A stretch of DNA of 64,000 nucleotides, taken from contig NW_015163195.1 in assembly GCF_001447785.1 (NCBI RefSeq), positions 73,267 through 137,266 of the forward strand. Reading direction: 5' to 3'. The DNA is from Gekko japonicus (taxonomy: Eukaryota). Below, piece by piece: positions 7,895 to 62,554 of this stretch. A model generated the notes under the pieces. The model was not told the DNA's origin. It ran no database searches and was given only the letters and a program-made list of their open reading frames with translations. Position 1 is the stretch's first letter; each line of letters opens with the position of its first letter. A program made the position numbers and the translations under genes.

Positions 7895-7926
7895 CTCCAC
7901 CCATCTTTCTCTCCTTGCAGGTGAGT
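7895..7926 (+). promoter_or_regulatory. Splice acceptor of the OR-A coding exon fused to a consensus donor (Py-tract CAG|GTGAGT)
   Basis: ctccacccatctttctctccttgcAG(7919-7920)|GTGAGT; ATG 18 nt downstream. Confidence 0.7.
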
Positions 7927-7938
7927 CCAGAGCTCTCA

Positions 7939-8895
7939 ATGGGAGTGAGGAATCAGACGCGAGTGGTGGAATTTGTCTTCCTGGGTTTCTCCAGCATTCC
8001 GAACAGCCACATCTACCTCTTCCTGCCATTCCTAGTCATTTACTTGGTCACCGTGCTGGGGAACCTCACGATATTTATTCTAATTCAACTGGATTCCAGC
8101 CTCCAGAGCCCCATGTATTACTTCCTCAGCCACCTCTCCTGCTTAGATATTTGCCTCTCCTCCGTCACGGTCCCCAAGATCTTGGTGAACTTCTTGTGCC
8201 AGCGACAGACCATCACGTACAACCAGTGCATGGCCCAGATGTTCTTCTTGATGTCTTTCACAGGGACAGAGGCTGCATTGCTGGGTATCATGGCCTATGA
8301 CCGCTATGTTGCCATCTGCAAGCCTTTGCATTACTCCCTGCTCATGAGCACCAAGGTGTGTGCCATTTTAGCCTTTTCCACCTGGGTCTGGGGCTTCTTA
8401 GACTCTGCTCTCCATACAGCTCTCAGCTCCAAGTTGCTATTTTGTGGAGTCAACCAGATTCATCACGTCTTCTGTGATCTCCCCGCACTGATGAAGATTT
8501 CTTGCAGCGATACACAGGCCATAGAAATGGTGTTAGGTATTGCCAGCCTTTTTGTGGGCGTGGCCCCCTTCCTGTTCACGATCCTCTCCTACGCCTTCAT
8601 CCTGTCCTCCATCTTGAAGATCCGTTCCACAACCGGCAAGCGCAAAGCTTTTTCCACTTGTGCTTCTCACCTAACTGTTGTCACCGTTTACTACGGAAAT
8701 GGGCTACTGAACTACAATAGACCAAGCACCGGGTACTCCTTGGAGATTGACACCCTGGTCTCCATCATGTTCTGCATAAGCCCCCCGATGTTGAACCCCC
8801 TCATCTACAGCCTCCGCAACAAGGAGGTGAATAGAACTTTTGCTCACAAGGTTCCACAGCTTAGCGGGAACAATGGTCACCACACTAGAAATTAG
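7939..8895 (+). CDS. Olfactory receptor, class II (OR-A), 318 aa, atypical C-terminus
   Basis: NQT glycosylation site, GN in TM1, [53 protein letters not shown]. The true ATG is at 7939; the ORF track starts at an upstream GTG. Confidence 0.92.
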   Translation: MGVRNQTRVVEFVFLGFSSIPNSHIYLFLPFLVIYLVTVLGNLTIFILIQLDSSLQSPMYYFLSHLSCLDICLSSVTVPKILVNFLCQRQTITYNQCMAQMFFLMSFTGTEAALLGIMAYDRYVAICKPLHYSLLMSTKVCAILAFSTWVWGFLDSALHTALSSKLLFCGVNQIHHVFCDLPALMKISCSDTQAIEMVLGIASLFVGVAPFLFTILSYAFILSSILKIRSTTGKRKAFSTCASHLTVVTVYYGNGLLNYNRPSTGYSLEIDTLVSIMFCISPPMLNPLIYSLRNKEVNRTFAHKVPQLSGNNGHHTRN

Positions 8896-9139
8896 GGCAT
8901 TCTGTGGTATTTGTCAGTGTCGCTCCCCTGGAGAGCTACTGGCTCCAGAATTTTGAAATCTCCGGTGTTCACTGTTCTCTCATTTTGCTATAGCAGGACA
9001 TATTGAAGCAGTCGGGAACACACCAAGTCAGTAGCTGAACGGAAATGAAAGCCAGGAATTAAGAAAATTACAAAGGAGTCAGAATAAAAAGAATGGGGGG
9101 GAAATAAGAAAAGCTCTTATATGCCAAGAAGAAGATAAG

Positions 9140-9536
9140 AGGAAGAGGAAGAAGAGGAGGAGGAGGAGGAGGAGGAGGAGATTGGATTTATACCCCACCC
9201 TTCACTACCCAAAGGAGTCTCAGAGCGGCTTACTAACTCTTTTCCCTTCCCATTCCCACAACAGAGACCCTGTGTTATACCCCGCCCTTCACTACCCAAA
9301 GGTGTCTCAAAGCGGCTTACAAACTCCTTCGCCTTCCCCTCCTCACAACAGACACCCTGTGAGGTAGGTGGGGCTGAGAGAACTCTTGGCAGAAACTGCT
9401 CTTTTGCGAGAACAGCTCTTATCAGAACTACGGCTTGCCCAAGGTCATTCAGCAGGTGCAAGTGGAGGAGTGGGGGAATCAAACCCGGTTCTCCCAGAGT
9501 AGAGTCCGCGCACTGAACCACTACACCAAACTGGCT
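9140..9536 (-). mobile_element. Squam3-like SINE with internal duplication and (CCT/CTT)n tail
   Basis: Complete head-to-tail SINE; the 3' segment is duplicated (9186-9270 and 9275-9360). Confidence 0.8.
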
Positions 9537-10133
9537 GGTTGAAGGAGGGCCCAGACTTCATGTCCTTTGCTGAATGCCCAGTTCTAAGCATCTCACTAGG
9601 ATCTGATTCGTATTTAGTGGCTGAAATTGAACTGCAGTGGCTGTTAAATACTTCTACTTTCTTGCCTTTTCTGTCCACTCGTTAGTCAATAAAGTTTACT
9701 TGTACTTGCTAGAGGTCTCTCTCTCTCTCTCTCTTTCTCTCTTTCCAGCTCTATTGGGGTGGGGGTATCCCAACATCAGCAGCCACCTGGATCAGAGTGT
9801 GCACATATGGGGATGCGTAGGCATGCACACGAGAGGATCCTGGTAACAGCCAACCACTGAACATGAGCAGAGTGCTAATTAGACATTCCTCTTCCAGAAC
9901 TCTACATCTTGTGGGGTGAGGTGTCATTTCAGGACACCAACCCAAGTCTATAGAACAGGACATTACACCTTTTTATATAAAATATGTCTGCAAAAGGAAC
10001 AGACTTGTAAGCCCCTCTGGCTCCTTTGGGTTCATCCCCAGGAGACTCGCAAACCTATGGCTGTCCCACATCTCTGTGTGGTGACAGTGTCCCTTCCCTG
10101 GCTCTTCGTGGGTGCCAAAAACAAACTCATAGA

Positions 10134-12220: not shown

Positions 12221-15200
12221 ATCCACTCTCCAGGGTCTCATGCAGCTGTCCGTGTCACTTGCTGTTCTTCTAACGGGAGATGCCAGGGATTGAGCCTGGG
12301 ACCGTCTGCATGCCAAGCATGCCAAGCATGCCAAGCAGAGGCTATACTATGCTTCACATGTACTGGAGACCTCTGTGGGCACAAGTTGTGTATCCCCTGG
12401 CACTATGAGGCAATATCCATTGTGTATGGCTTCACTGAGTCTGCATAAAAGCCCCAGGTGAGCCACCAATTCTCGAAAGTTCAAGCAATTACACACCATT
12501 TCCTGGGGGTTTCCAACTGAGGTTCATCCCCAAGGACCCCAGGCCAAGTAATGTATTCTCACTTCCAATCCACCTCAGTCTTATACAAACTGGTTACAGG
12601 GACATGCTCTTCATGCTGAAGATGGAGAGAGACCTTCCAGACTGACTGTAGAGTCCACGTTTGGGGATGACCAATCACTGCCACGCTGTAGTCTTCAGGC
12701 TAAGTGATATCTCCACTCTGACTTTGCAGTCTAGCAGCAGGGGCAGTGAAAGGCCATGGGGTTTCCCTTGCCAACGTGAACTGGAGCTGAACTGGAGGAG
12801 AAGCCATCCATCCATCCATGTGCAAAGGTGAGTCGCTTTCTAGCAGAAACTGCTCATATTTTTCTGAGACAGAAAGATAAACAAGAATGGAGAACAGAGA
12901 CCAGCCCATTACAAATGCATATTTTACTGCAGATTTTCAGAGCAGTAAGCCTTTAGTCTTGACTTATTTATATATATACTTATACTTCGGATTCTGTGCC
13001 TGTACTACGCTCAATTCTTTCCCTCCGCTGTATTTATTCTGCAGCTACAATTTTTTTTAAACATGTTTTTCTAAATTGGGGTGGAATGTCACTTGTGACA
13101 TGTGAGGGGGTGTGTGTGGCATCCAAGTTTGTTTTTTTAATGCAATTGCTCTATTGGAAATGTGCAGTAGCATCCAGGAAGTGCATTCCTTTAAATCCCC
13201 GTGGTTCAGGTTTTACACATGCACTGTAGGATTAGTTCATTGAATGAAAGGGAACAGAAAAGAACAGGGCAAAGGGGGGAAACTTGATGTTGAAACTGAC
13301 CAGACTTTTTTTTTAAAATTGACAAGCAGCTGTGAAGCCCCATTTTGCATATTGCCGAGCACGAGCGGATTCTCTGCTGTGTTATCAACCATTGTGAAAA
13401 GTGGGAAAGAGACAGTCCTATAATATTGGGAAACATATTGAGTTTACAGAATGCACGGTAGAACCCACTGACACTGGTACTGCAAGCTGTGATCATTAGC
13501 AACGTATGTGTGTGGGTGTGCCTGTGCAAAGTCAGCTGCAACTCCACCACACATTGCACAGGGCTGCAATTTCTGTGGGGGAGGAATCCTCTGGCAGAAG
13601 CTCTGGAGAGCTTTTTTTTAGTCTTGTACCACTAAACTGGAAAAAAGGAGGAATTTTCTCCAATGCCCTAGCACAACTGCATAATAATGCTAATTTCCTG
13701 CCATTTCTCACAAATTTGTGGTTTTCTCTTTGCAACTCTCTAATTTGATACTGCACACTGGTCATGATCTTGGCAGTTTTTTACAGCCTATCCTGTGCAG
13801 ATTGCACTCTGTCCTCCAAATAGGTTGATCCCAAGAAATTATTAAATTCAGCGGTTTGTAAAAGGTCCATGTGGTTCAGCTGCCATTTTAACGTTAGGCT
13901 TCCAGAGTCTGCCAAAATGCCCCCCCCAAACAAACAAAACTTTGTTAATTAAAGCATGAAATAGAGAAATGTTTTCAAAGCTTTAGACTTCCCATCCCAG
14001 TGTCTCTCTCTTTACACCTCATGTCAATTTCCGTCTGTGCTGATGATACCCCCCTTTCATTTGTTTGAATACAGCACTGAAATCCTTTTTTTTTTTGCAC
14101 TGAGGATGCTGCCATTTGCTTCCTCTCTGATCCCCCCCTCAAGTCAATCCCAGCAGGGAACAAATCCTCGCAGAGCTCCCTTAAAACTCCTACTCGAAAT
14201 TTTAATTTTTTAATTTAGCGACTCGAGACTACTGATAGTCTCATATCATTAGACTCATGCTGCTTGTCAAAAAAAAACCCCACGGAAATGTAAAAACAAA
14301 AGGAAATTGGAGCTTGTGCACCAATGAAGGAGGGAGGATGGCAGAAGGTGTAGAGTGTGTGGAAAAACCTTGATATGGGCAGGGGACTGACCTTCGATTG
14401 GCAGCAAAAGGGCAGGGGAGAAATCCAAGGGAATCTGTATGCTTTTGAATTACCTTCAGCTTGGAAGCAAAATAAGGAGGAGATCGGCACAAAAGCACTC
14501 TCAGAAAACCCAGATAAACTGAAACTTGAAAGCAAACTGAGTGTTGAAGGGAGGGAAATCAATGCAGGATGACAAAGAGGTCTCTTATGCATGGGTGTTT
14601 CCCCCTGCTTTCAATGTGCATACACTGTAAGGGAAGATCTTGTCTCACTAACCTGTTAGTGTTCTTTGAGGGGGTGAACAAACATGTGGACAAGGGGGGC
14701 CCAATAGATGTTGTTTACCTTGACTTCCAGAAAGCTTTTCATAAAGTTCCTAATCAAAGGCTCCTAAGTAAGCTCAATAGTCATGGGATAAAAGGACAAG
14801 TCCCACTGCTTACCACCCAGTTTTTGATCCATAAAAGGACAAGTCCTTTTATGGATCAAAAACTGGCTAATTAATAGAAAAGAAGAGAGTGAGTATAAAT
14901 GGGCAATAAACTGGGTCCGATGCTTTTTAACTTGTTTATTAATGATTTGGAGTTGAGAGTAAGCAGTGAACTGGCTAAATTTGTGGATGATACGAAGTTG
15001 TTCAGGGTGGTGAGAACCAGGGAGGATTGTGAGGCACTCCAAAGGGATATGTTGAGGATGGGAGAGTGGGTGTCAATGTGGCAAATGGGGTTCAATGTGG
15101 CCAAGTGCAAAGTGATGCACATTGGAGCCAAAAATCCTAACTATAAATACACATTGATGGGGTCTGAACTGGCAGAGACTGACCAAGAGAGAGATCTTGA

Positions 15201-15564
15201 AATTGTAGTAGATAACTCACTGAAAATGTTGAGACAGTGTGTGACTGCAATAAAAAAGGCCAATGCTATGCTGGGGATTATTAGGAAGAGAACTGAAAAC
15301 AAATCAGCCAATATCATAATGCCCCTGTATAAATCAATGGTGCGACCTCATTTGGAATACTGTGTGCAGTTCTGGTCACCACACCTCAAAAAGGATATTA
15401 TAGCATTGGGAAATGTGCAGAAAAGGGCAACTAGAATGATAAAAGGGTTGGAACATTTTCCCTATGACGAAAGGTTAAAGCGCTTGGGGCTCTTTAGCTT
15501 GGAGAAACGACGGCTGAGGGGTGACATGATCAAGGTTTATAAGATTATGCATGGGATAGAGCAG

Positions 15565-16009
15565 TGTGAGGATGTCCCCTGTCCTTCTCTTCGTTGTACT
15601 TTTGCAGCCTCAGAATCTGAAGGAACCTGCCATGGTTCTCGCTCCAGTTTTATTGAGATGAAAACCTCCTGGGTAGTAATTACAGCTGTCCCTGGTAGTA
15701 ATTTTCATCTCAATCGATTCCTCACCGGCTGTATCCAACTTTATTTTATTTGACCTTTTAACAACCATACAGGCAACGTTAGTGAACTTCTGACCTTTCT
15801 TCTACTCTGCAGAGAACTTTCCCCAACTTCGTCGTTCTATCTATTCTACCCTCTAAGGTTCTCTGTTTTACCCTGGCCCTGCCATTTCTCTTACATTTTG
15901 CTTCGCCCTCCTTGCTCCTGTCTTCTGCCTGTCCCTTTTCTCCTAGTATAGCCCTTTCTGTCTGAGTTTGGCAAGGAGTCAGAGCCCCCTGGGTCTCTGG
16001 GGTCTGACA
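15565..16009 (-). repeat. 3' LTR of the Gmr1-type element (~445 bp)
   Basis: TGTCAG...CTCACA termini on -. Preceded on - by the PPT aaaggggggggatg (16010-16023). Matches 20434-20702. Confidence 0.85.
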
Positions 16010-19000
16010 CATCCCCCCCCTTTGCCCGGTGATCAAGGATGAGTCGGTGTCCTCGTAGAGCCGCGACAAAAAATCTGCGTTGGCATGTTGCGATCCCGAT
16101 CGGTGTCGGATTTCGAACCTGAAAGGTAACAATGATAAATACCAACGTTGAATGCGGGCATTAGAATCTTTCATTCGGTAGAGCCATTGCAGGGGGGCAT
16201 GATCAGTAATAATCGTGAAGGGGTTTTGATCCAAATAGTATTTAAGTGTAGTGATGGCCCATTTTACTGCCAAGGCCTCTCTTTCGATAGTAGAATACCT
16301 ACATTCCGCCTTGGATAGCTTACGGCTTAAGAAAAGTATGGGTCTGTCTTCGCTTCCCGTTTCTTGGGCTAACACAGCCCCAATACCAGTGGCAGAGGCA
16401 TCTGTTTGCACTATAAAGGGCTTCGAGAAGTCAGGGTTGTGCAAAAGAACGTCTTCCTGGAGAGCTGTTTGCAAATCCTGCAAAGACCTCAAGGTGGTTT
16501 CGGTCCATTTGAGTTTATTAGGTTCTTTATTTTTAAGCATATCTGTAAGGAGCGAGGCCCGTGAAGCGAAACGGGGGATAAATCGACTATAATAGCCAAT
16601 TAGCCCCAGGAAGCGTCTCAATTGTCGTTTTGTACTGGGTAGAGGGAAGTCTCGGATGTGCACTACTTTGTCTGGTTGAGGTTTAAGGATACCTCCGCCT
16701 ACCACAAAACCCAGGTATTTTACTTCCTGAAATCCTATTAAACTTTTCTTGGGATTAGCCGTTAGGCCTGCCTCTTTTAATGCCAGGAGCACACTTTCCA
16801 AATGTTTTAAATGCGTTCCCCAATCCGGGCTAAAGATAATAATATCGTCAATATATGCCGCTGCAAAACCTTTGCAATGGGATAGCACCATATCAACTAA
16901 TCGCTGGAAAGTAGCGGCGGCCCCATGTAACCCAAAAGGCATTCTGAGGAATTGATATAACCCTGATGGAGTGGCAAATGCTGTCTTCTCCCTATCTGCT
17001 GGATCGACCAACACCTGCCAATAACCTTTTGTAAGATCTAGCGCGGACATCACTTTGGCTTTGCCGAGTTGTTCTAGTAGCCCATCCGGGCGTGGCATGG
17101 GATAGGCGTCAAATTTGGAGACCCGATTGACTTCTCGATAATCTATACAAAAACGAGTGCTCCCATCAGGTTTGGGAACTAGCACCACGGGACTTCTCCA
17201 GGCACTACGGGAAGGTTCTATAACTCCCAACCTTAGCATCTCCTGCACTTCTTTTTCTACCGCTTCCCAGCGAGCCCGTGGAATAGGTCTCCATACGGAG
17301 CAGGCTACTTGTTGAGCTTCTGTGGGAATCTTATGGGTGATGCAGGTAGTGCAGCCTGGTTGCGTAGAAAACACCCCTGGTATTTTATTTAAGACTTCCG
17401 CTATCTCTACTGCTTGTTTTTCGGACAGACTTGTGCTGAGGACCGGTCCCACCGTTTCTTGCTTGGCAAGGTTCGTATGGGTGGGGAACCCTGGCATTTC
17501 CTCTACAGTAGACTCCCCTAATAGAGTTCTCTCTCGCCATTCCTTCAAGTGGTTCACATGTAATGTTCTAATGGTTTGAGCTGTCTGACCACATTGAACT
17601 CTATATGTTACAGGGCCTAAAACTTTTATTATTTCAAATGGACCTTCCCACGTTTGGGTTCCTGGGTGTAAACAGGCTCTGCGATGCACCAAGACTTTGT
17701 CTCCTATCTTAAAATTTCTTAGTTTGGCCTTCTTATTGTAATATTTTTGTTGCATATTCGTAGCTTTGACTAGATTTACTCTTGCTTGTTCATGGGCCCA
17801 ATTTAGTCTCTCTTTCAGTTGTTCTATATATTCCACAGGTGGTTTGGCCGTTGTCTCAGGCCGTTGTGTCCATTGTCCTTCAATTAAGGCCATGATACCC
17901 CTAGGTTGGCGCCCAAAGACTAGCTCAAAGGGGCTGAAACCTGTGGAGGCTTGAGGAGTTTCTCTGAAAGCAAACAGCAACGGTTCAATATATAAATCCC
18001 ACTTTTGGGGTTGGTCTTGACCTACTTTCTTTAAGGCTTCCTTGACAGTGTGGTTGAACCGTTCTACCAAGCCATCCGTCTGGGGATGATACAGGGAAGT
18101 GAATATTTGCTTGATTCCTAGATTGTTACACAATTGTTTCAATATCCCAGCTCTAAAGGATGATCCCTGGTCCGATAATAGCTCTTTGGGTATCCCAAAT
18201 CTAGAGAAAAGTTGGAAGAGAGCTTTGACTACTCCAGACACCTTCATTGTTCTCAAGGGTATGGCTTCTGGATATCTAGTGGCATAATCCATAAGAACCA
18301 ACAAAAATCGGTTTCCCCTCGGGGTCCTAGGTAAGGGTCCTATAAAATCCATGGCTACTCTGGAAAAGGGTTCAGAGATCCGGGGTAAAGGTTGCAAAGG
18401 TGCTACCTTAGGCAATCTGTTGGAGTGGGTTTGGCAGCTTGGGCACGTAATACAATATTGCTTTACATCTTGGTGCATGGTAGGCCAGAAGAAGTGTTCT
18501 AGTATTCGTGCTATTGTTTTAGCCGGACCTTGGTGTCCCGCCCATAAATGATCATGAGCTTCCTTCATCACCTTTAGACGTTTTGATTTAGGAAGCAATA
18601 TTTGTTGTACTTCCCTTCCCCCGGTGCCCACCTGCGCTCTCCTAAACCAAACCCCGTTCTGACATTCTACCCTAGGCAGTCGGTTAGCTAACCGGGTATT
18701 AGTTATTTGTTTTTCCCTTACCGCCACTTGTCTCCGCATGGCCTCCAATGTAGGATCTTCCTCTTGCTCCTGTTGGAACTTTGGGTCTGCTGTCCATTCG
18801 CCTAACTCCTCCTCTGGGTTGCTGTCCCCTTCCCCGTCTACACTGTCTCCTGGTTCTTCTTCCGTTGAGTCCTCAGTGGGACTGTCACTATCCTCTTCTG
18901 CTCCACTGGCCGAGAGAGTGACTACTCCCCCTAAGGTTCCCTCTGCCGAGGCTTGGTGAATCAACTGCTTAAACGCTTTCAAATCTCTCCCAAGCAGCAA

Positions 19001-20323
19001 TGGACAAGGCAAAGTGGCGACCTTAGCCGCTTCTATTGTATAGGCTTTCCCTTCGATTATTACTGGTATACGCACCATAGGCCATTGGTGATTATGTTGA
19101 GTAAAGCAGTTAATCTGCGTCCATCTAACTATGGGCCAATGGGGTGCCGCTAAATCACCCCTTATCATAGAGATCGAACTGCCGGAGTCTAACAACGCTT
19201 CTACCCGCAACCCGGGCATGTGCGCAATTACCGTGAAAGGAGCCCAACCGTGGGTACACCAGCTCGAGAGAGTTAAGGGCCAGGCTCCCTCACACTCCAT
19301 GAGGGGACATTCCCTTTGTAAATGCCCCATTTCGCCACAGGAGAAACAGGGCCCCTTTGGACTCACCACCATTCCGCCCACTTTGTCTCTGTTTTCAGGG
19401 GCCTTAGGGGGACTTCCCTCTGGACGTGCGTAAGGGCGTGGCGGTAGTACCAGTCTATTTTGGCTGGGGGTTATAGGACCCCTCGAGAAGGGGCGGGCTC
19501 TTCCTCCCCGGTTTATGCTTCCAGCAAGCCCCGGCACCAGAGTACCTCCTCTCACACCCCCGGTCCCAGTGCCCGTCTGTTTTCCTTTTTCTATTGTTTT
19601 CCGTCCCGTTTCAGCGGTCATGAAATTCTCCATTAACGAAATTAACTCTTCCGCAGTCCGTGGCTTATTGCGCATTACCCACACCCTCATCTCTTCTGGT
19701 AAGGCTAAGGTGGCTTGCTCCAATATTACTTTATTTACTATTAGCTTCTCCCCGGGGAGCTTCGGCCCTAACCAACGTTCCGCGGCTTCGCTTAACTCGG
19801 CTACCCACAGTCTGGGTCTTTCCTCACTTCTCCATTTACTGGCTCTAAAGCGTTGTCTAAAGGATTCCTCCGTTATTTCAAATCTATCAAGTATCGCTTG
19901 CTTGACCGTGTTATAATCTCCCAGCTGTGTTTTTGAGAGGCTACGCAGTACTGATTGGGCTTTTCCTGTTAAATAGGGGCCTAATATATACGACCACTGG
20001 GCTTGGGGCCATTGCGCAATTTCTGCTGTACGTTCAAAGGTCTCCAAGAACAGTTCCACGTCGTCTTCCGCAGTGAGTTTAGTTAACAATGAGGTAGGTG
20101 TACGGGCCCCTCCAGCCCCTGCCCCTGAGCCTCTTACCTGTTCCCAGGTTTTGCTTAAGTCTCGTATGAGGATGGCTTGTGATTCTTGTTGATGTCTCAT
20201 CCAATCACTCATCAGTCGTTCCTGTCGTTCGGCCATCCACTGGGTTAACTGAACTATATCTATAGCGGGGTTTGCCTGGGTTGCTCCGGTTGCTCCTCCA
20301 ACCTCATTCCTGGCTTCGTCCAT
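15779..20323 (-). CDS. Gag-Pol polyprotein (SCAN-like capsid, CCHC knuckle, protease, integrase, RT, RNase H), ~1514 aa, uninterrupted
   Basis: In order: ESFRQRFR...WLGP...VILEQ...LP...WV (SCAN-like); CFSCGEMGHLQREC; LLDSGS; H-H-CPSC with DFIGP/SDQG/GLVERFN; GPF; SPVVLVPKPDGSTRFCIDYR, YIDD; TDASATGIGAVL, NADFLSR. First ATG at 20323. Confidence 0.93.
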   Translation of the reverse strand: MDEARNEVGGATGATQANPAIDIVQLTQWMAERQERLMSDWMRHQQESQAILIRDLSKTWEQVRGSGAGAGGARTPTSLLTKLTAEDDVELFLETFERTAEIAQWPQAQWSYILGPYLTGKAQSVLRSLSKTQLGDYNTVKQAILDRFEITEESFRQRFRASKWRSEERPRLWVAELSEAAERWLGPKLPGEKLIVNKVILEQATLALPEEMRVWVMRNKPRTAEELISLMENFMTAETGRKTIEKGKQTGTGTGGVRGGTLVPGLAGSINRGGRARPFSRGPITPSQNRLVLPPRPYARPEGSPPKAPENRDKVGGMVVSPKGPCFSCGEMGHLQRECPLMECEGAWPLTLSSWCTHGWAPFTVIAHMPGLRVEALLDSGSSISMIRGDLAAPHWPIVRWTQINCFTQHNHQWPMVRIPVIIEGKAYTIEAAKVATLPCPLLLGRDLKAFKQLIHQASAEGTLGGVVTLSASGAEEDSDSPTEDSTEEEPGDSVDGEGDSNPEEELGEWTADPKFQQEQEEDPTLEAMRRQVAVREKQITNTRLANRLPRVECQNGVWFRRAQVGTGGREVQQILLPKSKRLKVMKEAHDHLWAGHQGPAKTIARILEHFFWPTMHQDVKQYCITCPSCQTHSNRLPKVAPLQPLPRISEPFSRVAMDFIGPLPRTPRGNRFLLVLMDYATRYPEAIPLRTMKVSGVVKALFQLFSRFGIPKELLSDQGSSFRAGILKQLCNNLGIKQIFTSLYHPQTDGLVERFNHTVKEALKKVGQDQPQKWDLYIEPLLFAFRETPQASTGFSPFELVFGRQPRGIMALIEGQWTQRPETTAKPPVEYIEQLKERLNWAHEQARVNLVKATNMQQKYYNKKAKLRNFKIGDKVLVHRRACLHPGTQTWEGPFEIIKVLGPVTYRVQCGQTAQTIRTLHVNHLKEWRERTLLGESTVEEMPGFPTHTNLAKQETVGPVLSTSLSEKQAVEIAEVLNKIPGVFSTQPGCTTCITHKIPTEAQQVACSVWRPIPRARWEAVEKEVQEMLRLGVIEPSRSAWRSPVVLVPKPDGSTRFCIDYREVNRVSKFDAYPMPRPDGLLEQLGKAKVMSALDLTKGYWQVLVDPADREKTAFATPSGLYQFLRMPFGLHGAAATFQRLVDMVLSHCKGFAAAYIDDIIIFSPDWGTHLKHLESVLLALKEAGLTANPKKSLIGFQEVKYLGFVVGGGILKPQPDKVVHIRDFPLPSTKRQLRRFLGLIGYYSRFIPRFASRASLLTDMLKNKEPNKLKWTETTLRSLQDLQTALQEDVLLHNPDFSKPFIVQTDASATGIGAVLAQETGSEDRPILFLSRKLSKAECRYSTIEREALAVKWAITTLKYYLDQNPFTIITDHAPLQWLYRMKDSNARIQRWYLSLLPFRFEIRHRSGSQHANADFLSRLYEDTDSSLITGQRGGMCQTPETQGALTPCQTQTERAILGEKGQAEDRSKEGEAKCKRNGRARVKQRTLEGRIDRTTKLGKVLCRVEERSEVH

Positions 20324-20414
20324 GGTGCGCTGTCTTTCTCGTTCCGTTCTTTGGGCCGGCGGTACCCACCCCGCTGGACGCGGTAATCTCGGTAACGGGA
20401 ACAGCACGGCGACG

Positions 20415-20432
20415 TCCCCGTACGGGCCACCA
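20415..20432 (-). promoter_or_regulatory. Primer binding site, tRNA-Ile(AAU)
   Basis: TGGTGGCCCGTACGGGGA lies 1 nt after the 5' LTR and is complementary to the vertebrate tRNA-Ile(AAU) 3' end as recalled (TCCCCGTACGGGCCA-CCA). Confidence 0.88.
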
Positions 20433-20433
20433 C

Positions 20434-20702
20434 TGTGAGGATTTCCCCTGTCCTTCTCTTCTTTGTACTTTTGCAGCCTCAGAATCTGAAGGAACCTGCC
20501 ATGGTTCTCGCTCCAGTTTTATTGAGATGGAAACCTCCTGGGTAGTAATTACAGCTGTCCCTGGTAGTAATTTCCATCTCAATCGATTCCTCACCGGCTG
20601 TATCCAACTTTATTTTATTTGACCTTTTAACAACCATACAGGCAACGTTAGTGAACTTCTGACCTTTCTTCTACTCTGCAGAGAACTTTCCCCAACTTCG
20701 TC
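20434..20702 (-). repeat. 5' LTR of the Gmr1-type element (partial, cut by gap)
   Basis: 269 nt matching 15565-15833 with 4 substitutions by eye. Confidence 0.92.
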
Positions 20703-24254: not shown

Positions 24255-24286
24255 CCCCACCAATTTCTCTCTCCTTACAGGTGAGT
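24255..24286 (+). promoter_or_regulatory. OR-B acceptor fused to donor (CAG|GTGAGT)
   Basis: tttctctctccttacAG(24279-24280)|GTGAGT; ATG at 24299. Confidence 0.7.
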
Positions 24287-24298
24287 TCTGAAACCTCA

Positions 24299-26588: not shown

Positions 26589-26631
26589 CCCAATGAGTTT
26601 CATGGACTAAGTGGAGATTGGAACCCAGGCT

Positions 26632-42176: not shown

Positions 42177-42194
42177 TGGCGACGAAGGTGGGAT
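42177..42194 (+). promoter_or_regulatory. Primer binding site, tRNA-Ser(GCU)
   Basis: TGGCGACGAAGGTGGGAT lies 1 nt after the LTR and is complementary to the tRNA-Ser(GCU) 3' end as recalled. Confidence 0.8.
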
Positions 42195-42330
42195 GCCGCT
42201 GAGTCTGGCCTGGCTCGCACCAGCGCACGCTAAGCTTCTGTTCCTGCTACGCCGCACCCCGCATCGCGCACCAGCCGCACTGCACCGCGCTCCGCAACGA
42301 GGAACCTCAGCCCCGCGCTGCCGCTACGCC

Positions 42331-46704: not shown

Positions 46705-47618
46705 CACCTTTGACAGAACCATGGCTTGCCCAAGGTCATCCAGCAGATGGAAGAGGAGGAGTGGGGAATCAAACCCTGTTCTCCCAGATTAGAGTCCGCG
46801 CTCCTAACCACTATGCCAAACTGGCTCCAGAAAAGCCAGTTGTCAGCTCCAGTTCAAGGTTGCAGAGTTCCAGTAGCAGCAAGGGTGGTGGCTCAGTAGC
46901 AAAGTGTACTTCTTGTGTCGACAAACTGCTGCTTTTCTTAGCTGAATTTATAGCCAACCCTTAATGAGCTAAACTCCCAGCCAATTCCTTGGCAGTCATC
47001 CTGAAATGATTCATTCATCTCTTCAACTGACAGCTGATGACAGGCCATGAGTCTCACACTTCTCCTTTCTTAAAACTCTAAGCATCTCTGACAGCGTCAG
47101 GGCTGCAAGGGTGACTGTGGGTGAGCTAGGTTGGCTGGGAGTGGCTGCTGAAGACTTGTTTCACCTTTGACAGAACCATGGCTTGCCCAAGGTCATCCAG
47201 CAGATGGAAGAGGAGGAGTGGGGAATCAAACCCTGTTCTCCCAGATTAGAGTCCGCGCTCCTAACCACTATGCCAAACTGGCTCCAGAAAAGCCAGTTGT
47301 CAGCTCCAGTTCAAGGTTGCAGAGTTCCAGTAGCAGCAAGGGTGGTGGCTCAGTAGCAAAGTGTACTTCTTGTGTCGACAAACTGCTGCTTTTCTTAGCT
47401 GAATTTATAGCCAACCCTTAATGAGCTAAACTCCCAGCCAATTCCTTGGCAGTCATCCTGAAATGATTCATTCATCTCTTCAACTGACAGCTGATGACAG
47501 GCCATGAGTCTCACACTTCTCCTTTCTTAAAACTCTAAGCATCTCTGACAGCGTCAGGGCTGCAAGGGTGACTGTGGGTGAGCTAGGTTGGCTGGGAGTG
47601 GCTGCTGAAGACTTGTTT
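46705..47618. repeat. Exact 457-bp tandem duplication
   Basis: 46705-47161 = 47162-47618 by eye. Confidence 0.9.
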
Positions 47619-48615: not shown

Positions 48616-51600
48616 GCCATCCCCTCTGGGTTTCTGCTCCAGGAGAATCCCCCAGGACCCCAGGCCAAGAAAAGAATTCCCCTCTCCAGGTAGTGTCAGC
48701 CTTGTGCACCTCTGGCTGCAGAGAGACCTGCTACAGAGCATCGGCAACGTCAAGGCGGAGGCATGCTTTCCATGTCTTTTGTTGGTTGCACATCGAGGGG
48801 CAGCCAGGCATTAACATGCTGAAAACTTTAGGCTAAACTGCTCTGCCTTCCTGCGAATGGGATGAACAGGAGCGGAATGCCTGCAGGTGGAGGAACCCTG
48901 CCGTGATTGGTAACCCATGTGCAAAGGTGAGTAGGTTTTTTCTAGCCACCAGTGTTTCTAGAATCTGCGTAATTCCTCCCTCCAATGGCAGGCAGAAAAG
49001 GGGGTGGCTTTCTGAGCCCTTTGGCTGGCAACAGCCACTCCAGATGCACCTTACGGAGCTACGATTTGTTCAGTAGAATGGAATGGAGAGCACGCGTATT
49101 TTTTCCCCCTAGGATCACACAAGAATGAAGGATTAGTGTCTCTGGCTTGAATATATGCAATCGAGACGATGCCCCAATAAAGGAAAGGCTGAAAAAGCAT
49201 GGCTCTTACCTGCCTGTGCTGCAGCCTTGCTGGGACTTGAATTCGGCACCGGTGTTGTTTTTTTTCCCATTTATCATTTTGCCACCTTTGATATTCAGTC
49301 CACTGGCGTCGCTGCTGGCTCTGGTGCTGGAACATCAACTCCATTTGCTTGAATCTAGAATTCATGGCTCTCCACCCTGGCTCAGTCACACCGGCTCACC
49401 ATTCCTCTCCATTATCCCATTCCTGAGCCTCAGGTTGCATGCACCGCAGTTGTCAGAATGGTGAGAAGTTCTAGAGTCTACTCGAGTGGCTATCCAGGTT
49501 GGTTCCTTTTCCTTTCATATGGACCCATCCGCCTCCTCCAGGTAGGTGGTAAGCCCACCTCCCCCAGGCCATGTGGGCACTTGGCCAGAGCCATTTCCCA
49601 GTTACGGACCACTGAACCAAGACCCACAGGTGGGGAGACCCATCTCAGTCATTTCATCGTGATGGACAGATTGATCAGAGGCCAAAGCACAGAGGACACA
49701 AACGTCCCTCCATGCAACTTGCACTAGCATACAGGAGCATTATTCGTTTATAGTGACATGTACATGAAAGGAGAGAAGTCCCTGGTTAAGGGGTCAGAGG
49801 GAGGCCAGGGATGGGTGGACATCTATGGAGGGGTGAAGAAGGAGGGTGTGGAATTAACAGTTAAGCTAAGTCCAGATAGATTGAAGGTTTAAAGGCAAGC
49901 CTGAAGAGGAGGCCGGGGATGTCCCAGAATTGCAGCTGATTTCCAGACTGAGCTATCTAATAAGGGATCAGGCAGATGATGGCTCTTGGGGAGGGGCTTT
50001 GGCTCAAGATGGGTGCATACAAAAGTAGATGGATGGATAGATAAATAGACCCATTACGCACACAGGTTTTACTGCAGATTTTCAGAGCAGTAAGCCTTTA
50101 GTCTTGACTTTGGATTTTGTACGTGCCGTATGCACTATTTTTCCTTCACTGTATTTATTCTGCACCTACAATTTTTAAAAGTGCGCTTTTCTAAATTGGG
50201 GTCGGACATGTGGGGGGAGGTGTCCAAAGTTTTCTTAAAAAACAAATTATGCAATTGCCCTATTGAAGCTCCGCTGTAGCATTCAGCAAGCATGTTCCAT
50301 TTAAATCCTCATGGTTCCGGTTTTACACATGCACAGTAGGATTAGTTCATTGAATGAAAGGGAACAGAAGGAACACAGGCAAAGGGGGAAAACCTGATAT
50401 TGACAATGACCAGACTTTTTTTTTTTTAACTGACAAGCGGCTGTGAAGTCCGGCTTTCCATATTGCTGAGCCCTAGAGGATTTACTGCTGTATTATCGGC
50501 CATTGTGAAAAATGGGAAAGACTCACAAAATCACAAAATATGGGGAAACATGATGAGTTTGCAGAATGCATGGTACAACCCACTGACATAGGCATTGCAA
50601 GCTGTGATCATTAGCAACGTGTGCGTGCCTATGCAAGTCGGCTGCAACTCCACCACGAGTTGCACAAGGCTGCAATTTGTATGGGAGAGGAGTCCTCTGG
50701 CAGACTGTCTGGAGAACTGGCAAAATCCAGTTGGAAAGTGCACTGAAAGTGGATTATTTAGAGTGTGTAGGAGAAAAGCCTTTTAGTCTTTGCCACTAAA
50801 TTGAAAAAATGGAGGTATTTTCACTGAAGCCGTAGCACAGCGGCATAGTAATGTTGATTTTCCCACCCTTTCCAGCAAAATTGCATGGGTTTCTCTTTGT
50901 GGTTCTCTAATTTGATCCTGCACACTGGTCATGATCTTGGCAGTATTTAGAGCTTGTCCTGTGCAGAGTCCACTCTGTCCTCCAAATACATCAATCCTGC
51001 GAGATTATTAAGTTCGGCAGTTTGCAAAAGGTTCATGTTGCTCAGCTGCCATTTTAATGTTAGGCTTCCAAAGACTGCCAAAACGTTCCCCCCCCCCAGG
51101 CATTAAAGCACTGAAGCATTAAAGAGAAAAACATTTTCAAAGCTTTTAGGCTTCCCATCCCAGTGGCTCCCTCTCTTTTTACACCTCATGTCAGTTTCCT
51201 TCTTCACTGATGATCCCCCCCCTTATTTTGTTTGAATGCAGCACTGAAATCCTTTTTTCTTTTTTTTTCTTTTTTTTTAAAGAGTTTATTTAAGTTTTCA
51301 GTATATTTTTTGCACTGAGGATACTGCCGTTTGCCTCCTCTCTGATCCTCCTTTCAAGTCAATACCACTAGGGAACTCATTTAATTTTTTTAATTTAGTA
51401 ATTCATATCACTAAACTCATGCTGCTAGTAAAAAAACAACAACGCCAAAAATTTAAAAACAAGAAGGCAATTGCAGTTTGTACACCAATGAAGGGGGGAG
51501 AATGGCAGAAGCTGCAGAGTGGGCAGAACAACCTTGGTGTAGGCCGGGGACTGACCTTCAAGGGGCAGCAAAAGGCCAGGGGGGAACCCTGAGGGAATAT

Positions 51601-52242: not shown

Positions 52243-52274
52243 CTCCACTTATTTCTCTCTCCCTTTAGGTGAGT
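52243..52274 (+). promoter_or_regulatory. OR-D acceptor fused to donor (TAG|GTGAGT)
   Basis: tttctctctccctttAG(52267-52268)|GTGAGT; ATG at 52287. Confidence 0.7.
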
Positions 52275-52286: not shown

Positions 52287-53243
52287 ATGGGAGTGAGGAA
52301 TCAGACACGAGAGGTGGAATTTGTCTTCCTGTGTTTCTCCGGCATCCCAAACAGCCACATCTCCCTCTTCCTGCCATTCCTAGCCATTTACTTGGTCACC
52401 GTGCTGGGCAACCTCATGATATTTACTCTGATTCAGCTGGATTCCAGCCTCCAGAGCCCCATGTATTACTTCCTCAGCCATCTCTCCTGCCTCGACATCT
52501 GCATCTCCTCCGTCACAGTCCCCAAGATCCTGGTGAACTTTTTGTACCAGCAACAGACCATCACCTACAACCAATGCCTGGCCCAGATGTTCTTCCTGAT
52601 GTCTTTCACGGGGACAGAGGCTGCCTTGCTGGGTGTCATGGCCTATGACCGCTATGCCGCCATCTGCAAGCCTTTGCATTACTCCTGCCTTATGAACACC
52701 AAGGTGTGCACCATTTTAGCCTTTGCCACCTGGGTCTGGGGCTTCCTAAATGCTGCACTCCATACAGCTCTCAGCACCAAGGTGCACTTCTGTGGAGTCA
52801 ACCAGATTCATCACATTTTCTGTGATATTCCTCCACTGATGAAAATTTCTTGCAATGATGTGCATATCAATCAACTGGCATCCCAAATAGCAAGCCTTTT
52901 TGTGGGCATGGCCCCCTTCCTGTTCACTATCCTCTCATACAACTTCATCCTGTCCTCCATCTTGAAGATCCGGTCCACCACTGGCAAGCGCAAAGCTTTT
53001 TCCACCTGTGCCTCTCACCTCACCGTTGTCATAATTTACTTTGGAAATGGATTCCTTAACTATAATCATCCAGGCACGGGTTATTCCTTAGAGACTGACA
53101 CTCTGGTCTCCACCATGTACTGCATCATCACCCCAATGCTGAACCCCCTCATCTACAGCCTCCGGAACAAAGAGGTGAAGGGTGCTCTGAAGAAGGTTCT
53201 AGAAAGTCAGAGGAAGGTCTACAAACTATCACACAAACAGTAA
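52287..53243 (+). CDS. Olfactory receptor, class II (OR-D), 318 aa
   Basis: Canonical motifs; intact ORF. FLCFS replaces the usual FLGFS. Confidence 0.96.
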   Translation: MGVRNQTREVEFVFLCFSGIPNSHISLFLPFLAIYLVTVLGNLMIFTLIQLDSSLQSPMYYFLSHLSCLDICISSVTVPKILVNFLYQQQTITYNQCLAQMFFLMSFTGTEAALLGVMAYDRYAAICKPLHYSCLMNTKVCTILAFATWVWGFLNAALHTALSTKVHFCGVNQIHHIFCDIPPLMKISCNDVHINQLASQIASLFVGMAPFLFTILSYNFILSSILKIRSTTGKRKAFSTCASHLTVVIIYFGNGFLNYNHPGTGYSLETDTLVSTMYCIITPMLNPLIYSLRNKEVKGALKKVLESQRKVYKLSHKQ

Positions 53244-53757
53244 AGAAGAACATTTGCCGAATCTGTCAGTTGTTGCCAACCCTGGCGAGGAGACTTCTGG
53301 CTCCTCTTCTTTCCCATCAGTGGTCAACTGTGAATGCATCCTTTGCCAGGCAATGCCCCTAGTTCCTGGCAAGTGAAACACCAAACTGATTGTGATGTTG
53401 ATCTTGTGTTCTGCTTTATGTTCCATTGGCTTCAATATTCTCATATTTTAAGTACGAAGAAGATAAGGAAATTCTGTAAATAAATGAATGATAAATTATT
53501 TCATACTCCCCAAATACAAAACCTAATGGGAAATGAAAGAGATATTTACAATGTAGCCATTAGAAAGCCAAAGAGTTATAGCCAGAAGGTTTTTGAAGTA
53601 TACATTTCCTGTCCGGGTGTGTGCCTCTCACATTTTATGCTGTCCTTCCTCCAAAGAGCTCAGGGGGGCATACATACTTCTCTCTTCCCCATTTGATTTT
53701 CATAGCAGCTCTGAGATATACATCCAACTGAGAGAAGATTGGCCTAAGGTCATGCAG

Positions 53758-54682
53758 CGTACTGATGTAGCTTCCCTTGGAGGCACGAGCTGGGGTTCCC
53801 TTGGGGCAAGTAACAGGCAAGGTTTCAGAGAGTAACCAAAGTCCAGTCCAAAAGTCAGGGGTTCCAGAGAGCAGGTTTCCCAGAGTCCAGTCTAGAGTCA
53901 AGGAGTTCTAGGTAGCAAGTCTAATTCCAGTCTGGTTTTGTCCAAGGTCAGAGGTTCCAGAAAAGCCAATTGTCAGGTCAAGGTTGCAGAGATCCAGTAG
54001 CAGCAAAGTTAGTAGAACAGTATGAAAGTGTACTTGCTGTGTCCACAAACGGCTGCTTCTCCCAGCTGAATTTATAGCCAACCCTTAATGAGCTAAACTC
54101 CCAGCCAATTCCTTGGCAGTCATCCTGAAACTACTTATTCATCTCTTCAATTGACAGCTGAGGATAGGCCATGAGCTGCAAGGGTGTCTGTGGGTGAGCT
54201 AGGTGGGCTGGGAGTGGCTGCTGTAGACTTGTTTACTACTTCAGAGCTACAAGATGTTGGCTTGGGTTCAGCTGTAGGTTGTGACTCCTTACCAGCTGGT
54301 AACCTGATCGCTTCTTGTTCCCTTTTTGGCTCAGAGCCAGCTGTAGCTGGCTGTTCAATCCCGCAGTCATCCTGAAACTACTTATTCATCTCTTCAATTG
54401 ACAGCTGAGGATAGGCCATGAGCTGCAAGGGTGTCTGTGGGTGAGCTAGGTGGGCTGGGAGTGGCTGCTGTAGACTTGTTTACTACTTCAGAGCTACAAG
54501 ATGTTGGCTTGGGTTCAGCTGTAGGTTGTGACTCCTTACCAGCTGGTAACCTGATCGCTTCTTGTTCCCTTTTTGGCTCAGAGCCAGCTGTAGCTGGCTG
54601 TTCAATCCCTGGCTCAGGGCTAGCAGGTAGCTCTTTGTCAGAGAAATCTGAGTCATCACTCAGCACAAACTGACTTATGACA
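53758..54682. mobile_element. Ancient solo-LTR-like copy, OR-D unit (no SINE inside)
   Basis: Homologous to 34149-34825; ends ttatgaca|cccag. Confidence 0.65.
54116..54609. repeat. Exact 247-bp tandem duplication
   Basis: 54116-54362 = 54363-54609 by eye. Confidence 0.9.
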
Positions 54683-56469
54683 CCCAGTGAGTGTCATAGA
54701 TTGAGTAGGGATTGGAACCCAGTTTGTTGTAGTGGTTAGGAGCGTAAACTCTAATATGGGAGAACCGGGTTTGATTCCCCACTCCTCCACATGTGGCTGT
54801 TGGTGTGACCTTGGGTCAGTCATAAGCTCTTTCAGAGCTGTTCTCTCAAGAGCAGTTCTCAAGGGAGCTCTCTCAGCCTCGCATTCCTCACGGGGTGTCT
54901 GTCGTGGGGAGGGGAAAGGGAAGGGATTGTAAGCCGCTCTGAGACTCTCTTCTTCTCTGAAACCCACACTCAATCCAGTATGGGACAAGGCTGCTTTTGG
55001 CATGTCACTCGCTTAAGTTAGCCCTGAGCAGATCTCAGGTCCAAATTCATGTTCGCAGCTCAGCTGGCAACCTCAGCTGGCAACAAGAATCCAGAGACCC
55101 AGAACACAAGCCGCATCGTGCCTTTTATTGGGACTAGCCCAATGACCCTGAATAGGGGTTCAGGACAGGTGGCAGCGAGGCCAGTCAATCAGTCAATCAA
55201 TTTATTACAGTCATACACCAGCAAACAATACGGTAAGGGGCAAGTAGATAACCGGTAAAAGAACAGTAAAATTATAAAATATAATAACATCTAAAATTAT
55301 GAACAGGAATCAAAAAGGTTTAAGATACAGAAATGGTAAAAAAATTATGTTAAGATCAAAGGTTAAAAATAAATGTAAGCATAGCTGCACTTCTTTATCA
55401 GGTTTAGGACAGGGGGCAGCTAGGCCAGTCCACTGCATGTTTACATGTGCTGCACAGCCTTCTGGGAATAAATGGTGTTTACTTCTCCCCTGGAATTCTG
55501 AGATCCGTCCCAACTCTCTGAGCCTCCAGCCATTATGCTTTACTCCCTCTGGGTTTCTGCTCCAGGAGAATCCCCCAGGACCCCAGGCCAAGAAAAGAAT
55601 TCCCCTTTCCAGGTAGTGTCAGCCTTGTGCACCTCTGGCTGCAGAGAGACCTGCTCCACGGCATCGGCAGTGTCATGCTGGAGGCATCCTTTCCATGTCT
55701 TTTGTTGGTTGCACATCGAGGGGCTACCAGGCATTAACATCCTGAAAACTTTAGGCTAAGCTGCTCTGCCTTCCTGCGAATGGGATGAACAGGAGCTGAA
55801 CGCCTGCAGGTGGAGGAACCCTGCCTTGATTTGTCACCTTTGTGCAAAGGTGAGTAGGTTTTTTCTAGCCACCAGTGTTTCTAGACGCTGAGTAATTCCT
55901 CTCTCCAGTGGCAGGCAGAAAAGGGGGTGGTTTTCTGAGCCCTTTGGCTGGCAACAGCCACTCCAGATGCACCTTATGGAGCTATGATTTGTTCAGGAGA
56001 ATTCAATGGAGACCACAAGTGTTTTTATTCTAGGATTGTGCTAAATACAAGAATGAAGGATTAGCGTCTCTGCCCCTTTGGTGGCTCGAATATATGCCAT
56101 CGAGACAGTGCCCCAATAAAAGAAAGGGCAAAGAAGCATGGCTCTAACCTGCCTGTGCTGCAGCCTTGGTGGGACTTGAATTCGGCACCGGGTTTTTTTA
56201 ATTTATCATTTTGCCACCTTTGATCTTCAGTTCACTGGCGTCATTGCCAGCTCTGATGCTGGAACATCAACTGCCTTTGCTCTAGACTTCGTGGTTCTCC
56301 ACCCTGGCTCAGTCACACCAGATCACCATTCCTCTCCATTATCCCATTCCTGACCCCAGCGTTGCATGCACCTTGTTTGTCGGGATGCTGAGACATTCTA
56401 CAGTCTACTCTAGTGGCTATCCAGGTTGGCTCCCTTAAGAGAAAAAAAAGCACAGGAGGCTTCCGATGT

Positions 56470-59974: not shown

Positions 59975-60362
59975 TGACGGCGTGCACGAAGCGTCCGAAT
60001 AATAAGAGTTTCAGGTTGCTGTGTGAAGCTATATACAGTGGTTTTATTTACAGAGTATTTACAGACAGTCCATACCACCATGCGGTCTCCAAATCATAGA
60101 ATTGTCCGACAAGGTGCTTCGCAGTAAACTAATTCACAGGTGTGAACACTTACATCAGGACTGTTCTCCTTATATACAGACTAGCACCAATCAGAGTCTT
60201 GTGCCGACTCATGGTGACTATTAATTAAGCTGATGCAACCTAGTGCAATCAGTACCTGGTGACACTGTCACATGACAGTTTAACCTGTCACACAGATCAG
60301 TATGATCTAACTCAATCATACCTGGCTGTCATCTTGCCCAGATATCTTACAATATACTGTCA
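59975..60362 (-). mobile_element. Solo LTR, 388 bp, 5-bp TSD (atttc)
   Basis: atttc|TGAC...GTCA|atttc; TATA-like and AATAAA motifs on -. The empty site is visible in the paralog at ~13690 (gctaatttcctgcc). Confidence 0.88.
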
Positions 60363-61554
60363 ATTTCCTGCCCATTCTTGCAAATTGGCGTGGTTTTCTT
60401 TTTGTGATTCTCTAATTTGATTCTGCATTCTGGTTGTGATCTTGGCAGTTTTTTAGAGCCTGTCCTGTGCGGATTGCACTCTGCCCTCTAGATGGGTTGA
60501 TCCAAAGAGATTCTTAAGTTCATCAGTTTGCAAAGGTCCATGTGGTTCAGCCACCATTTTAATATTAGGCTTCCGGAGACTGCCAACATTATCCCCCCCC
60601 CAGCTTTGTTCACTAAAGGGTTAAAGAGAAGAATGCTTTCAAACTTTTAGGCTCCCAATCCCAGTGTCTGTCTCTCTTTACATCTTATGCCAATTTCATT
60701 ACATGCTTATGATCCCCCCCTTTATTTTGTTTGTGAGCAGCACTAAAATCTTTTTTTTTACATAGGGAGGCTGCCACTTGCCTCCTCTCTGATCTCCCTT
60801 TCAAGTCAATACCAGCAGGGAACAACCTCACATAGCTCCTTTTAAACTCCCCCCCTTTTAATTTTTTTAAATTTAGTGATTTGAGATTACTGATAGTCTC
60901 GTATCTCTATACTCATGTCACTTATTTAAAAATTCAAAAATTTATAAACAAGGGGAAATTGGAGCTTGTGCACTGATGAAGGGGGGAGGATGGCGGAAGG
61001 TGCACAGTGGACGGAACGACCTCAACGTGGCAAAACAGTGTGCGTGGGGGAACGTGAGGGAATCTGTACGCTAAACCTTCAGTTTAGAACCAAAACAAGG
61101 GGGAAATCAGCATAAATTCACTCTCAGAAAACCTGGAGAAACAGCAGCTGGAAAGCAAACTGAAGGAAGGAAAATCCATGTGGCATATTATGCATGGTTC
61201 CCCCCACACACACACACGCTTTCACCATGCATGTCTGTTGGGTTTTTTTGGTCATCTTGCATTGATAGTTGGAGAATAGTTCCTCCAGGTGAGAAGATCA
61301 GGGTAGATTTCAAAGTGTTGCCTAACCAGCTACATGGTAGATGAGAAAGAGGAGAGGATGCATTTACAATGGATAAAATCACCTTACAATTTTGTTCTCC
61401 TCCAAAGGTGTTCTTCTGCATGAGCAAACGAATTGAGATGTGTGGTGGAGAGAGTGAGAGGAAAAGGCAGTTTTTTGGGAGATGGGGGGGGTGAGTTAAG
61501 GACAGGAAAGTACTGAAGGCAGAAACTGCAGGAGGACAAGACTTCAACAGATGC

Positions 61555-61585
61555 TTTCCCTATTTTTCTCTCCTTACAGGTGAGT
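61555..61585 (+). promoter_or_regulatory. OR-E acceptor fused to donor (CAG|GTGAGT)
   Basis: tttttctctccttacAG(61578-61579)|GTGAGT; ATG at 61598. Confidence 0.7.
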
Positions 61586-61597
61586 TCTGAAACCTCA

Positions 61598-62554
61598 ATG
61601 GGAGTGAAGAATCAGACGCGACAGGTGGAATTTGTCTTCCTCGGTTTCTCCGGCATTCCAAACAGCCACATCTACCTCTTCCTGCCATTCCTAGCCATTT
61701 ACTTGGTCACTGTACTGGGGAACCTCATGATATTTACTCTGATTCAGCTGGATTCCAGCCTCCAGAGCCCCATGTATTACTTCCTCAGCCATCTCGCCTG
61801 CCTAGACATCTGCATCTCCTCCGTCACAGTCCCCAAGATCCTGGTGAACTTCTTGTACCAGCAACAGACCATCACCTACAACCAGTGCCTGGCCCAGATG
61901 TTTTTCCTGATGTCTTTCACGGGGACAGAGGCTGCGTTGCTGGGTGTCATGGCCTATGACCGCTATGCCGCCATCTGCAAGCCTTTGCATTACTCCCACC
62001 TTATGAACACCAAGGTGTGCGCCATCTTAGCCTTTGCCCCCTGGGTCTGGGGCTTCCTAGATGCTTCTCTCCATACAGCTCTCAGCTCCAAGTTATACTT
62101 CTGTGGATCCAACCAAATTCATCACATATACTGTGATCTGCCCCCACTGATGAAAATTTCTTGCAATGATGTGCATATCAATCAACTGGCAACTCACATA
62201 GCAAGCCTTTTTGTGGGCGTGGCCCCCTTTCTGTTCACTATCCTCTCCTACATCTTCATTCTGTCCTCCATCTTGAAGATCCGTTCCACCACTGGCAAGC
62301 GCAAAGCTTTTTCCACCTGTGCTTCTCACCTCACTGTTGTCATAGTTTATTTTGGGAATGGATTACTTAACTATAATCCTCCAGACGCTGGTTATTCCTT
62401 AGAGATCGACACTCTGGTCTCCACCATGTACTGCATAATCCCCCCTATGCTGAACCCCCTCATCTACAGCCTCCGGAACAAAGAGGTGAAAGGTGCTCTG
62501 AAGAAGGTTCTGGAATGTCAGGGAAAACTCTACATATTGTCACAGAAACAGTAA
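61598..62554 (+). CDS. Olfactory receptor, class II (OR-E), 318 aa
   Basis: Canonical motifs; intact ORF. Confidence 0.96.
   Translation: MGVKNQTRQVEFVFLGFSGIPNSHIYLFLPFLAIYLVTVLGNLMIFTLIQLDSSLQSPMYYFLSHLACLDICISSVTVPKILVNFLYQQQTITYNQCLAQMFFLMSFTGTEAALLGVMAYDRYAAICKPLHYSHLMNTKVCAILAFAPWVWGFLDASLHTALSSKLYFCGSNQIHHIYCDLPPLMKISCNDVHINQLATHIASLFVGVAPFLFTILSYIFILSSILKIRSTTGKRKAFSTCASHLTVVIVYFGNGLLNYNPPDAGYSLEIDTLVSTMYCIIPPMLNPLIYSLRNKEVKGALKKVLECQGKLYILSQKQ

Follow-up and report, generated by a model that had tools for sequence, protein, structure and literature searches.

Does the donor-like hexamer GTGAGT that follows the putative splice acceptor of every intact olfactory receptor (OR) coding exon in a gecko gene array work as a recursive splice site, or is it a silent sequence copied together with an ordinary acceptor? 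The array belongs to Gekko japonicus and was studied in a window of 64,000 nucleotides (contig NW_015163195.1 of assembly GCF_001447785.1, positions 73,267 to 137,266 of the forward strand), to which all positions given here refer. Its five intact ORs, called OR-A to OR-E, are co-oriented on the + strand. The reading that we favor, with a probability of roughly 0.8, is that the YAG before each of them is the ordinary acceptor of an intron in the 5' untranslated region (5'UTR), and that GTGAGT is an ancestral copied sequence which would be a silent, repressed donor and not a working ratchet point.

In all five ORs, a pyrimidine tract and YAG are followed by GTGAGT without any spacer, and 12 nt separate the hexamer from the in-frame ATG. 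Acceptor and hexamer together occupy 7903-7926 in OR-A (CAG ending at 7920, GTGAGT at 7921-7926), 24263-24286 in OR-B (AG ending at 24280), 32648-32671 in OR-C (32665), 52251-52274 in OR-D (TAG, 52268) and 61562-61585 in OR-E (61579), as located by reading the sequence and by motif scan. The 18 nt between acceptor and ATG are open and in frame with the receptor in the five cases. The open reading frames (ORFs) that begin there are coding sequences (CDSs) of 318 aa each, at 7939-8895 (OR-A), 24299-25255 (OR-B), 32684-33640 (OR-C), 52287-53243 (OR-D) and 61598-62554 (OR-E), the first position being that of the ATG. Each is a single coding exon with the Pfam domain 7tm_4 (PF13853), detected at E-values of 1e-57 to 1e-60 in A, C, D and E (2.6e-57 for OR-A) and in OR-B through the annotated model P0004. 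This layout had been described in an earlier note on this DNA, whose account was exact for the five acceptors, for the ATG 18 nt downstream and in frame, for the hexamer in OR-A, which is intact and belongs to a lineage older than B-E, and for OR-E, where about 150 nt are missing just upstream of the acceptor and the hexamer is kept. No exact match to YYYYNYAGGTRAGT occurs in the window outside the five OR sites; with up to one mismatch there are 9 matches, versus 5.5 ± 2.3 in shuffled sequences.

The YAG before GTGAGT very likely serves as the acceptor for an intron in the 5'UTR. Model P0004, itself a prediction, likewise joins an upstream exon at the OR-B acceptor. That upstream exon was not accepted as the true first exon of OR-B, as it maps inside a Gypsy element (19620-19706). 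Further homologous GTGAGT copies were found behind a possible acceptor at 7720, 24031, 40223 and 61491, in A, B, a unit without CDS and E. They stand 90-250 nt upstream of the acceptors of A, B and E, are deleted in C, and could be part of an optional small 5'UTR exon.

Regarding the other end of the putative intron, GCAAAR|GTGAGT lies 2.7-11.5 kb before the acceptor in each unit that retains its upstream part, and the GCAAAR would end a non-coding 5' exon. The candidate donors are located at 2010-2027 in OR-A (GCAAAA, GT at 2022, predicted intron of 5,899 nt), 12816-12833 in OR-B (GCAAAG, GT at 12828, predicted intron of 11,453 nt with a Gypsy element), 29452-29971 in OR-C (two in tandem, both GCAAAA, GT at 29464 and 29966), 36383-36400 in the CDS-less unit (GT at 36395), 48915-48932 in OR-D (GCAAAG, GT at 48927, predicted intron of 3,342 nt) and 55838-55855 in OR-E (GCAAAG, GT at 55850, predicted intron of 5,730 nt), all on the + strand. 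OR-C has two possible first exons, because its candidate 5' exon occurs as a tandem duplication (29343-30320, 78% identity). This upstream GTGAGT was used as a positive control for conservation: it is one of just 2 invariant 6-mers among 258, with 43% of the columns invariant, and the upstream regions of A and B are 51-55% identical to those of C, D and E. When the candidate exon is read in the OR frame, a stop codon appears 18-32 codons upstream and none of the intervening codons is ATG, in 6/6 pairings, so that the protein would not be extended. Moreover, the window was scanned with the O/E promoter motif consensus taken from PMC3247239, and no enrichment was found (5 exact matches versus 3.9 expected). 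In B, C, D and E the candidate donor is preceded, at a distance of 278-300 nt, by one-mismatch O/E sites; these were not counted as promoter support because such sites occur at 0.73 per kb across the window.

Joined to the acceptor, the candidate exon would give the junction AAG|GTGAGT in B, D and E or AAA|GTGAGT in A and C, a 9-mer identical to the candidate exon's own donor 9-mer. The donor consensus is MAG|GTRAGT. Splicing of the candidate exon to the acceptor would hence re-create a consensus donor, as the earlier note had claimed for a 5'UTR exon, a point that holds on the predicted junction. Since this junction would re-create AAR|GTGAGT, the coding exon would be a putative recursive splicing exon (RS-exon). 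Such exons are not rare: in humans they make up 3.6% of exons (n=6,837) and occur in 21.7% of genes. Of these human putative RS-exons, 93.8% are constitutive, with the exon junction complex ensuring their inclusion, and the RS-exon share is similar across the deuterostomes examined (Blazquez et al. 2018, PMC6224609). In that work, an annotated exon is taken as a putative RS-exon when the 5' splice site at its junction scores above 5.52 in MaxEntScan. The gecko OR exon resembles them in being an ordinary included exon whose first bases would form a 5' splice site again once joined to the exon before it, and it is expected to be constitutive. It differs from the exons of PMC6224609 in that its junction is a predicted one and it is a terminal coding exon without a donor of its own; re-splicing would therefore need a cryptic acceptor or that of the next gene.

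The sequence of events that we propose begins with each unit as its own gene, with a promoter, a 5' non-coding exon, an intron, a terminal coding exon and a polyadenylation site. Splicing would join GCAAAR to GTGAGT at the acceptor and re-create the consensus 5' splice site, which the exon junction complex would then block, as it does in most human putative RS-exons. Finally, cleavage at the gene's own polyadenylation site would leave no acceptor of the next gene in the RNA, as suggested by the AATAAA positions and the gaps between units. This arrangement is the one of typical ORs, with non-coding 5' exons and one exon for the CDS and the 3'UTR (PMC7055050). The gecko units would share with this canonical vertebrate structure the candidate 5' non-coding exon or exons, the putative intron and the single CDS and 3'UTR exon, and they too are tandem paralogs; no difference was apparent, and recursion is not invoked in the available text of PMC7055050.

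The 3' ends of the units bear directly on the function that the earlier note had proposed, in which the splicing of one read-through transcript would advance acceptor by acceptor and remove each CDS in turn, a way of choosing or silencing ORs serially. The first AATAAA after the stop codon, a candidate polyadenylation signal, is found on the + strand at 9083-9088 (OR-A), 26757-26762 (OR-B, which lacks the near site of C, D and E), 33868-33873 (OR-C), 53479-53484 (OR-D) and 62827-62832 (OR-E), within 280 nt past the stop in 4/5 ORs (A, C, D and E). The distance to the next acceptor is 8.4-19.6 kb and includes retroelements. A conserved candidate donor for a first exon in every unit, together with an AATAAA past each stop, makes the ORs resemble separate genes and argues against serial stepping, as do the long gaps. 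In its favor, five co-oriented ORs each open with an acceptor and a donor, and 5'UTR exons shared between ORs, as well as chimeric OR transcripts, are known from a small number of loci in mammals, 7 and 11 per species; some of this exon sharing is missing from olfactory mucosa RNA-seq (PMC7055050). Furthermore, splicing inside one array could hardly yield a singular choice across arrays and alleles. Insect ORs are a family unrelated to vertebrate ORs. Also in favor of serial stepping, read-through has been reported for ant OR arrays, which are also tandem and where read-through RNA bears on the receptor made, but they rely on promoter choice, nuclear retention and antisense RNA rather than recursive splicing (PMC12393541).

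The comparison with known ratchet points leads in the same direction. Ratchet points and cryptic RS-exons of the Drosophila Ubx type share with the gecko ORs (5/5) the abutting acceptor and donor, YAG|GTRAGT. They lie in long introns, where they define skipped exons of ~50 nt that are followed by a donor, and they are strongly conserved (PMC8605326); they do not mark intact terminal coding exons. No short skipped cryptic exon within a long intron was found at the OR sites, where, unlike at ratchet points, an intact 318-codon ORF plus 3'UTR begins and the site varies among relatives. Besides, a junction from the 5' exon of one unit to the AG of the next OR would not prove recursion, because direct skipping yields an identical mRNA. 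The proposal of serial choice on a read-through transcript was not supported, given the separate candidate first exons, the AATAAA positions, the 8.4-19.6 kb gaps and the frequency of re-created donors, most of which are repressed (PMC6224609), and we regard it as barely credible.

The earlier note had also implied a special conservation of the hexamer, which would be expected to speak for recursion. The units share kilobases of non-coding DNA at ~70-95% identity in self-BLAST, which indicates that the five GTGAGT sites are one ancestral event copied by tandem duplication. A quick protein tree of 81 rows places B, C, D and E in a clade found only in G. japonicus (SH-aLRT 98) and OR-A with proteins of Eublepharis, Heteronotia and Euleptes. 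The caveat that the copies are paralogs and not five independent origins, already made in that note, was borne out by self-BLAST and tree alike. Across the five copies, the hexamer is invariant at 6/6 positions and the next 12 nt at 7/12 (one-sided Fisher p=0.092). The invariance of the hexamer had been stated correctly, whereas the sequence behind it, described as variable, is only partly so. Also invariant are 13/17 positions before the junction and 18/19 of the first coding positions, and in the homologous intron block of the same five copies 75/121 columns and 11/113 6-mers are invariant. Intron identity is 67-75% for A versus B-E and 72-90% for pairs among B-E; at the former values, six identical bases are expected about 9-17% of the time by simple arithmetic. 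Conservation of the hexamer above its flanks was not significant relative to the next 12 nt, and intron 6-mers are equally invariant. The invariance of GTGAGT is at background level, which is a further point against serial stepping. A GT at this place is in any case expected, as exon starts favor AG|Gt (exon-side junction consensus (A/C)AG||Gt, PMC3488318). As a caution, the invariance of a motif among recent paralogs does not equal selection.

To look beyond the paralogs, the same codons were read in annotated (predicted) proteins of relatives: 75 proteins of the gecko subfamily, 74 of which were anchored, with 10 reaching across the leader codons. Seven of these ten have Met at +1, where the window has Val, one has Val-Asn, one is OR-B itself and one could not be aligned. 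The Met-bearing proteins are one of Heteronotia (P0022, leader MSSELSM), five of Sphaerodactylus (P0050, P0055, P0058, P0060 and P0070, with the leaders MSFELSL, MSVELSL and MSFELSV) and one of G. japonicus (P0008). The five Sphaerodactylus proteins have Leu or Val in place of the usual Met, so that the ATG at +1 is the only start; the codon directly after the acceptor is then the start codon and cannot be GT. P0008 is not encoded in the window and is ambiguous, because a multi-exon model could use an AG at +4/+5. G. japonicus P0030 has the leader V-N-P-E-L-S-M, which implies GTNAAY and the loss of the G at +5. Outside geckos, a Zootoca protein continues through the acceptor as LSLQ-VNSISS and a Lacerta model reads ME-VNSISS, both with the same spacing. 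Further protein searches aimed at N-terminal read-through retrieved one partial protein and nothing else informative. As relatives read Met or Val-Asn at these codons, the position of the acceptor and the GT behind it seem to be old, unlike the donor-specific bases, which also tells against the special conservation implied before. After the expected GT, the GAGT would simply drift, with relatives carrying ATG or AAY. Start codons have also turned over in this group, the usual Met being lost and a new ATG appearing at the acceptor (Sphaerodactylus) or in a predicted upstream exon (lacertids P0106 and P0124).

These leaders raise the possibility that the 18 nt are coding, with an upstream exon providing an in-frame ATG in phase 0 and GTG AGT kept as Val-Ser. 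An open, in-frame segment is present in 5/5 ORs, homologs keep the pattern [VM][SN]xExS over it, the predicted Lacerta (ME|VNSISS) and P0030 models place a few residues ahead of it, and both mouse and human have split ORs (PMC7055050). On the other hand, the conserved candidate exon carries the in-frame stop without ATG mentioned above, and 3/5 variable leader positions alter the amino acid. Among 14 near-consensus donors of the five upstream regions, an in-frame ATG is present in only three, in D and E only and at unrelated places. A split OR is largely rejected for lack of a shared upstream in-frame ATG in the candidate exon or in these 14 donors, and we consider it very unlikely.

A local event that needs no read-through could also make use of the re-created donor, which would sometimes be spliced to a pyrimidine-rich AG in the OR's own 3'UTR before the polyadenylation site. 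The resulting RNA would lack the CDS and be non-coding, and the event would act either as a leak or as an off-switch. The predicted junction donor is strong, and a pyrimidine-rich AG is present 1,044-1,091 nt beyond the GT in A, C, D and E, B having the C/D site. Some mammalian OR isoforms lack the coding exon or have a truncated ORF (PMC7055050), and knock-down of eIF4A3 in HeLa cells increased skipping for 26.8% of RS-exons (PMC6224609). Nevertheless, the 3'UTR AG of B, C and D is lost in E and in an OR fragment of the array, and the site of A is non-homologous. About 2 such AGs per 1.1 kb occur in each of the four scanned transcripts, which looks like background, and the donor is absent from intact relatives. 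Local re-splicing is thus unlikely in our view. As for a regulated use, in which olfactory neurons would employ the re-created donor to excise the whole CDS, toward a 3'UTR AG or the acceptor of the next OR, as an off-switch or ratchet for receptor choice, we judge it extremely improbable.

Several points weigh against an ordinary acceptor with a silent donor. The predicted junction has 0 or 1 mismatch to the donor consensus, OR-A still keeps the hexamer despite its older lineage, and OR-B has no AATAAA until 1.5 kb beyond its stop. The evidence from homologs comes from predicted proteins and not DNA, in a sample biased to loci with an ATG: models extend upstream mainly where an ATG is present, so little can be learned from the 64 proteins whose start is the usual Met, and the majority may carry GTGAGT. 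The Met state needs two changes on the tree, of which only one is forced by strongly supported branches. Finally, very strong 5' splice sites of RS-exons can escape the exon junction complex (PMC6224609).

The array itself has a complex history. An OR expansion has been reported for G. japonicus (PMC4673495), and the closest named homologs of the ORs in the window are G. japonicus ORs with 87-92% identity. The last ~20 codons of OR-A (8832-8895) are unlike those of its paralogs and the length is still 318 aa, possibly due to compensating frameshifts. OR-B is a mosaic: its upstream exon region (12339-13054) is 91% identical to that of OR-A (1523-2226) and ~54% to those of C, D and E, whereas its acceptor region and CDS (23784-26352) group with C, D and E. 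This suggests unequal crossing-over or gene conversion. Self-comparison also revealed, after OR-B, a 5'-truncated and frame-broken OR fragment without acceptor or start (26629-27109, + strand). The CDS-less repeat unit (34465-41960, + strand) keeps the upstream region and the 3'UTR and has lost the acceptor and nearly all of the CDS; homology stops at 40264 and resumes at 41080, with ~800 nt of unrelated sequence in their place.

Two Gypsy-type elements were also found. The first, a long terminal repeat retrotransposon at 15562-20702 (- strand), lies inside the predicted 5' intron of OR-B and has one open frame of 1,579 codons (ORF 20518-15782) with SCAN, zinc knuckle and an integrase placed before the reverse transcriptase and RNase H. 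Its 272-bp terminal repeats are 98% identical, and it looks recent. SCAN-bearing Gmr1-like elements are known. The second element is GC-rich, extends over ~42000-46326 (+ strand) between the CDS-less unit and OR-D, and contains reverse transcriptase, RNase H and integrase. In addition, there are perfect head-to-tail duplications of 457 bp (46705-47618) and 247 bp (54116-54609), which are possibly assembly overlaps.

In the open-access literature searched, judged by title and the start of the abstract, no report of recursive splicing in ORs was found, and among the open-access papers retrieved on ratchet points, re-splicing and intrasplicing, one mentions an olfactory receptor, once. The analysis provides, as a by-product, candidate 5' non-coding exons for the gecko OR array that are not visible in protein-level annotation. 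If the site is ordinary, it would be one more putative RS-exon; if the re-created donor were used in neurons, it would add an extra layer of splicing to the one-neuron-one-receptor control of vertebrates.

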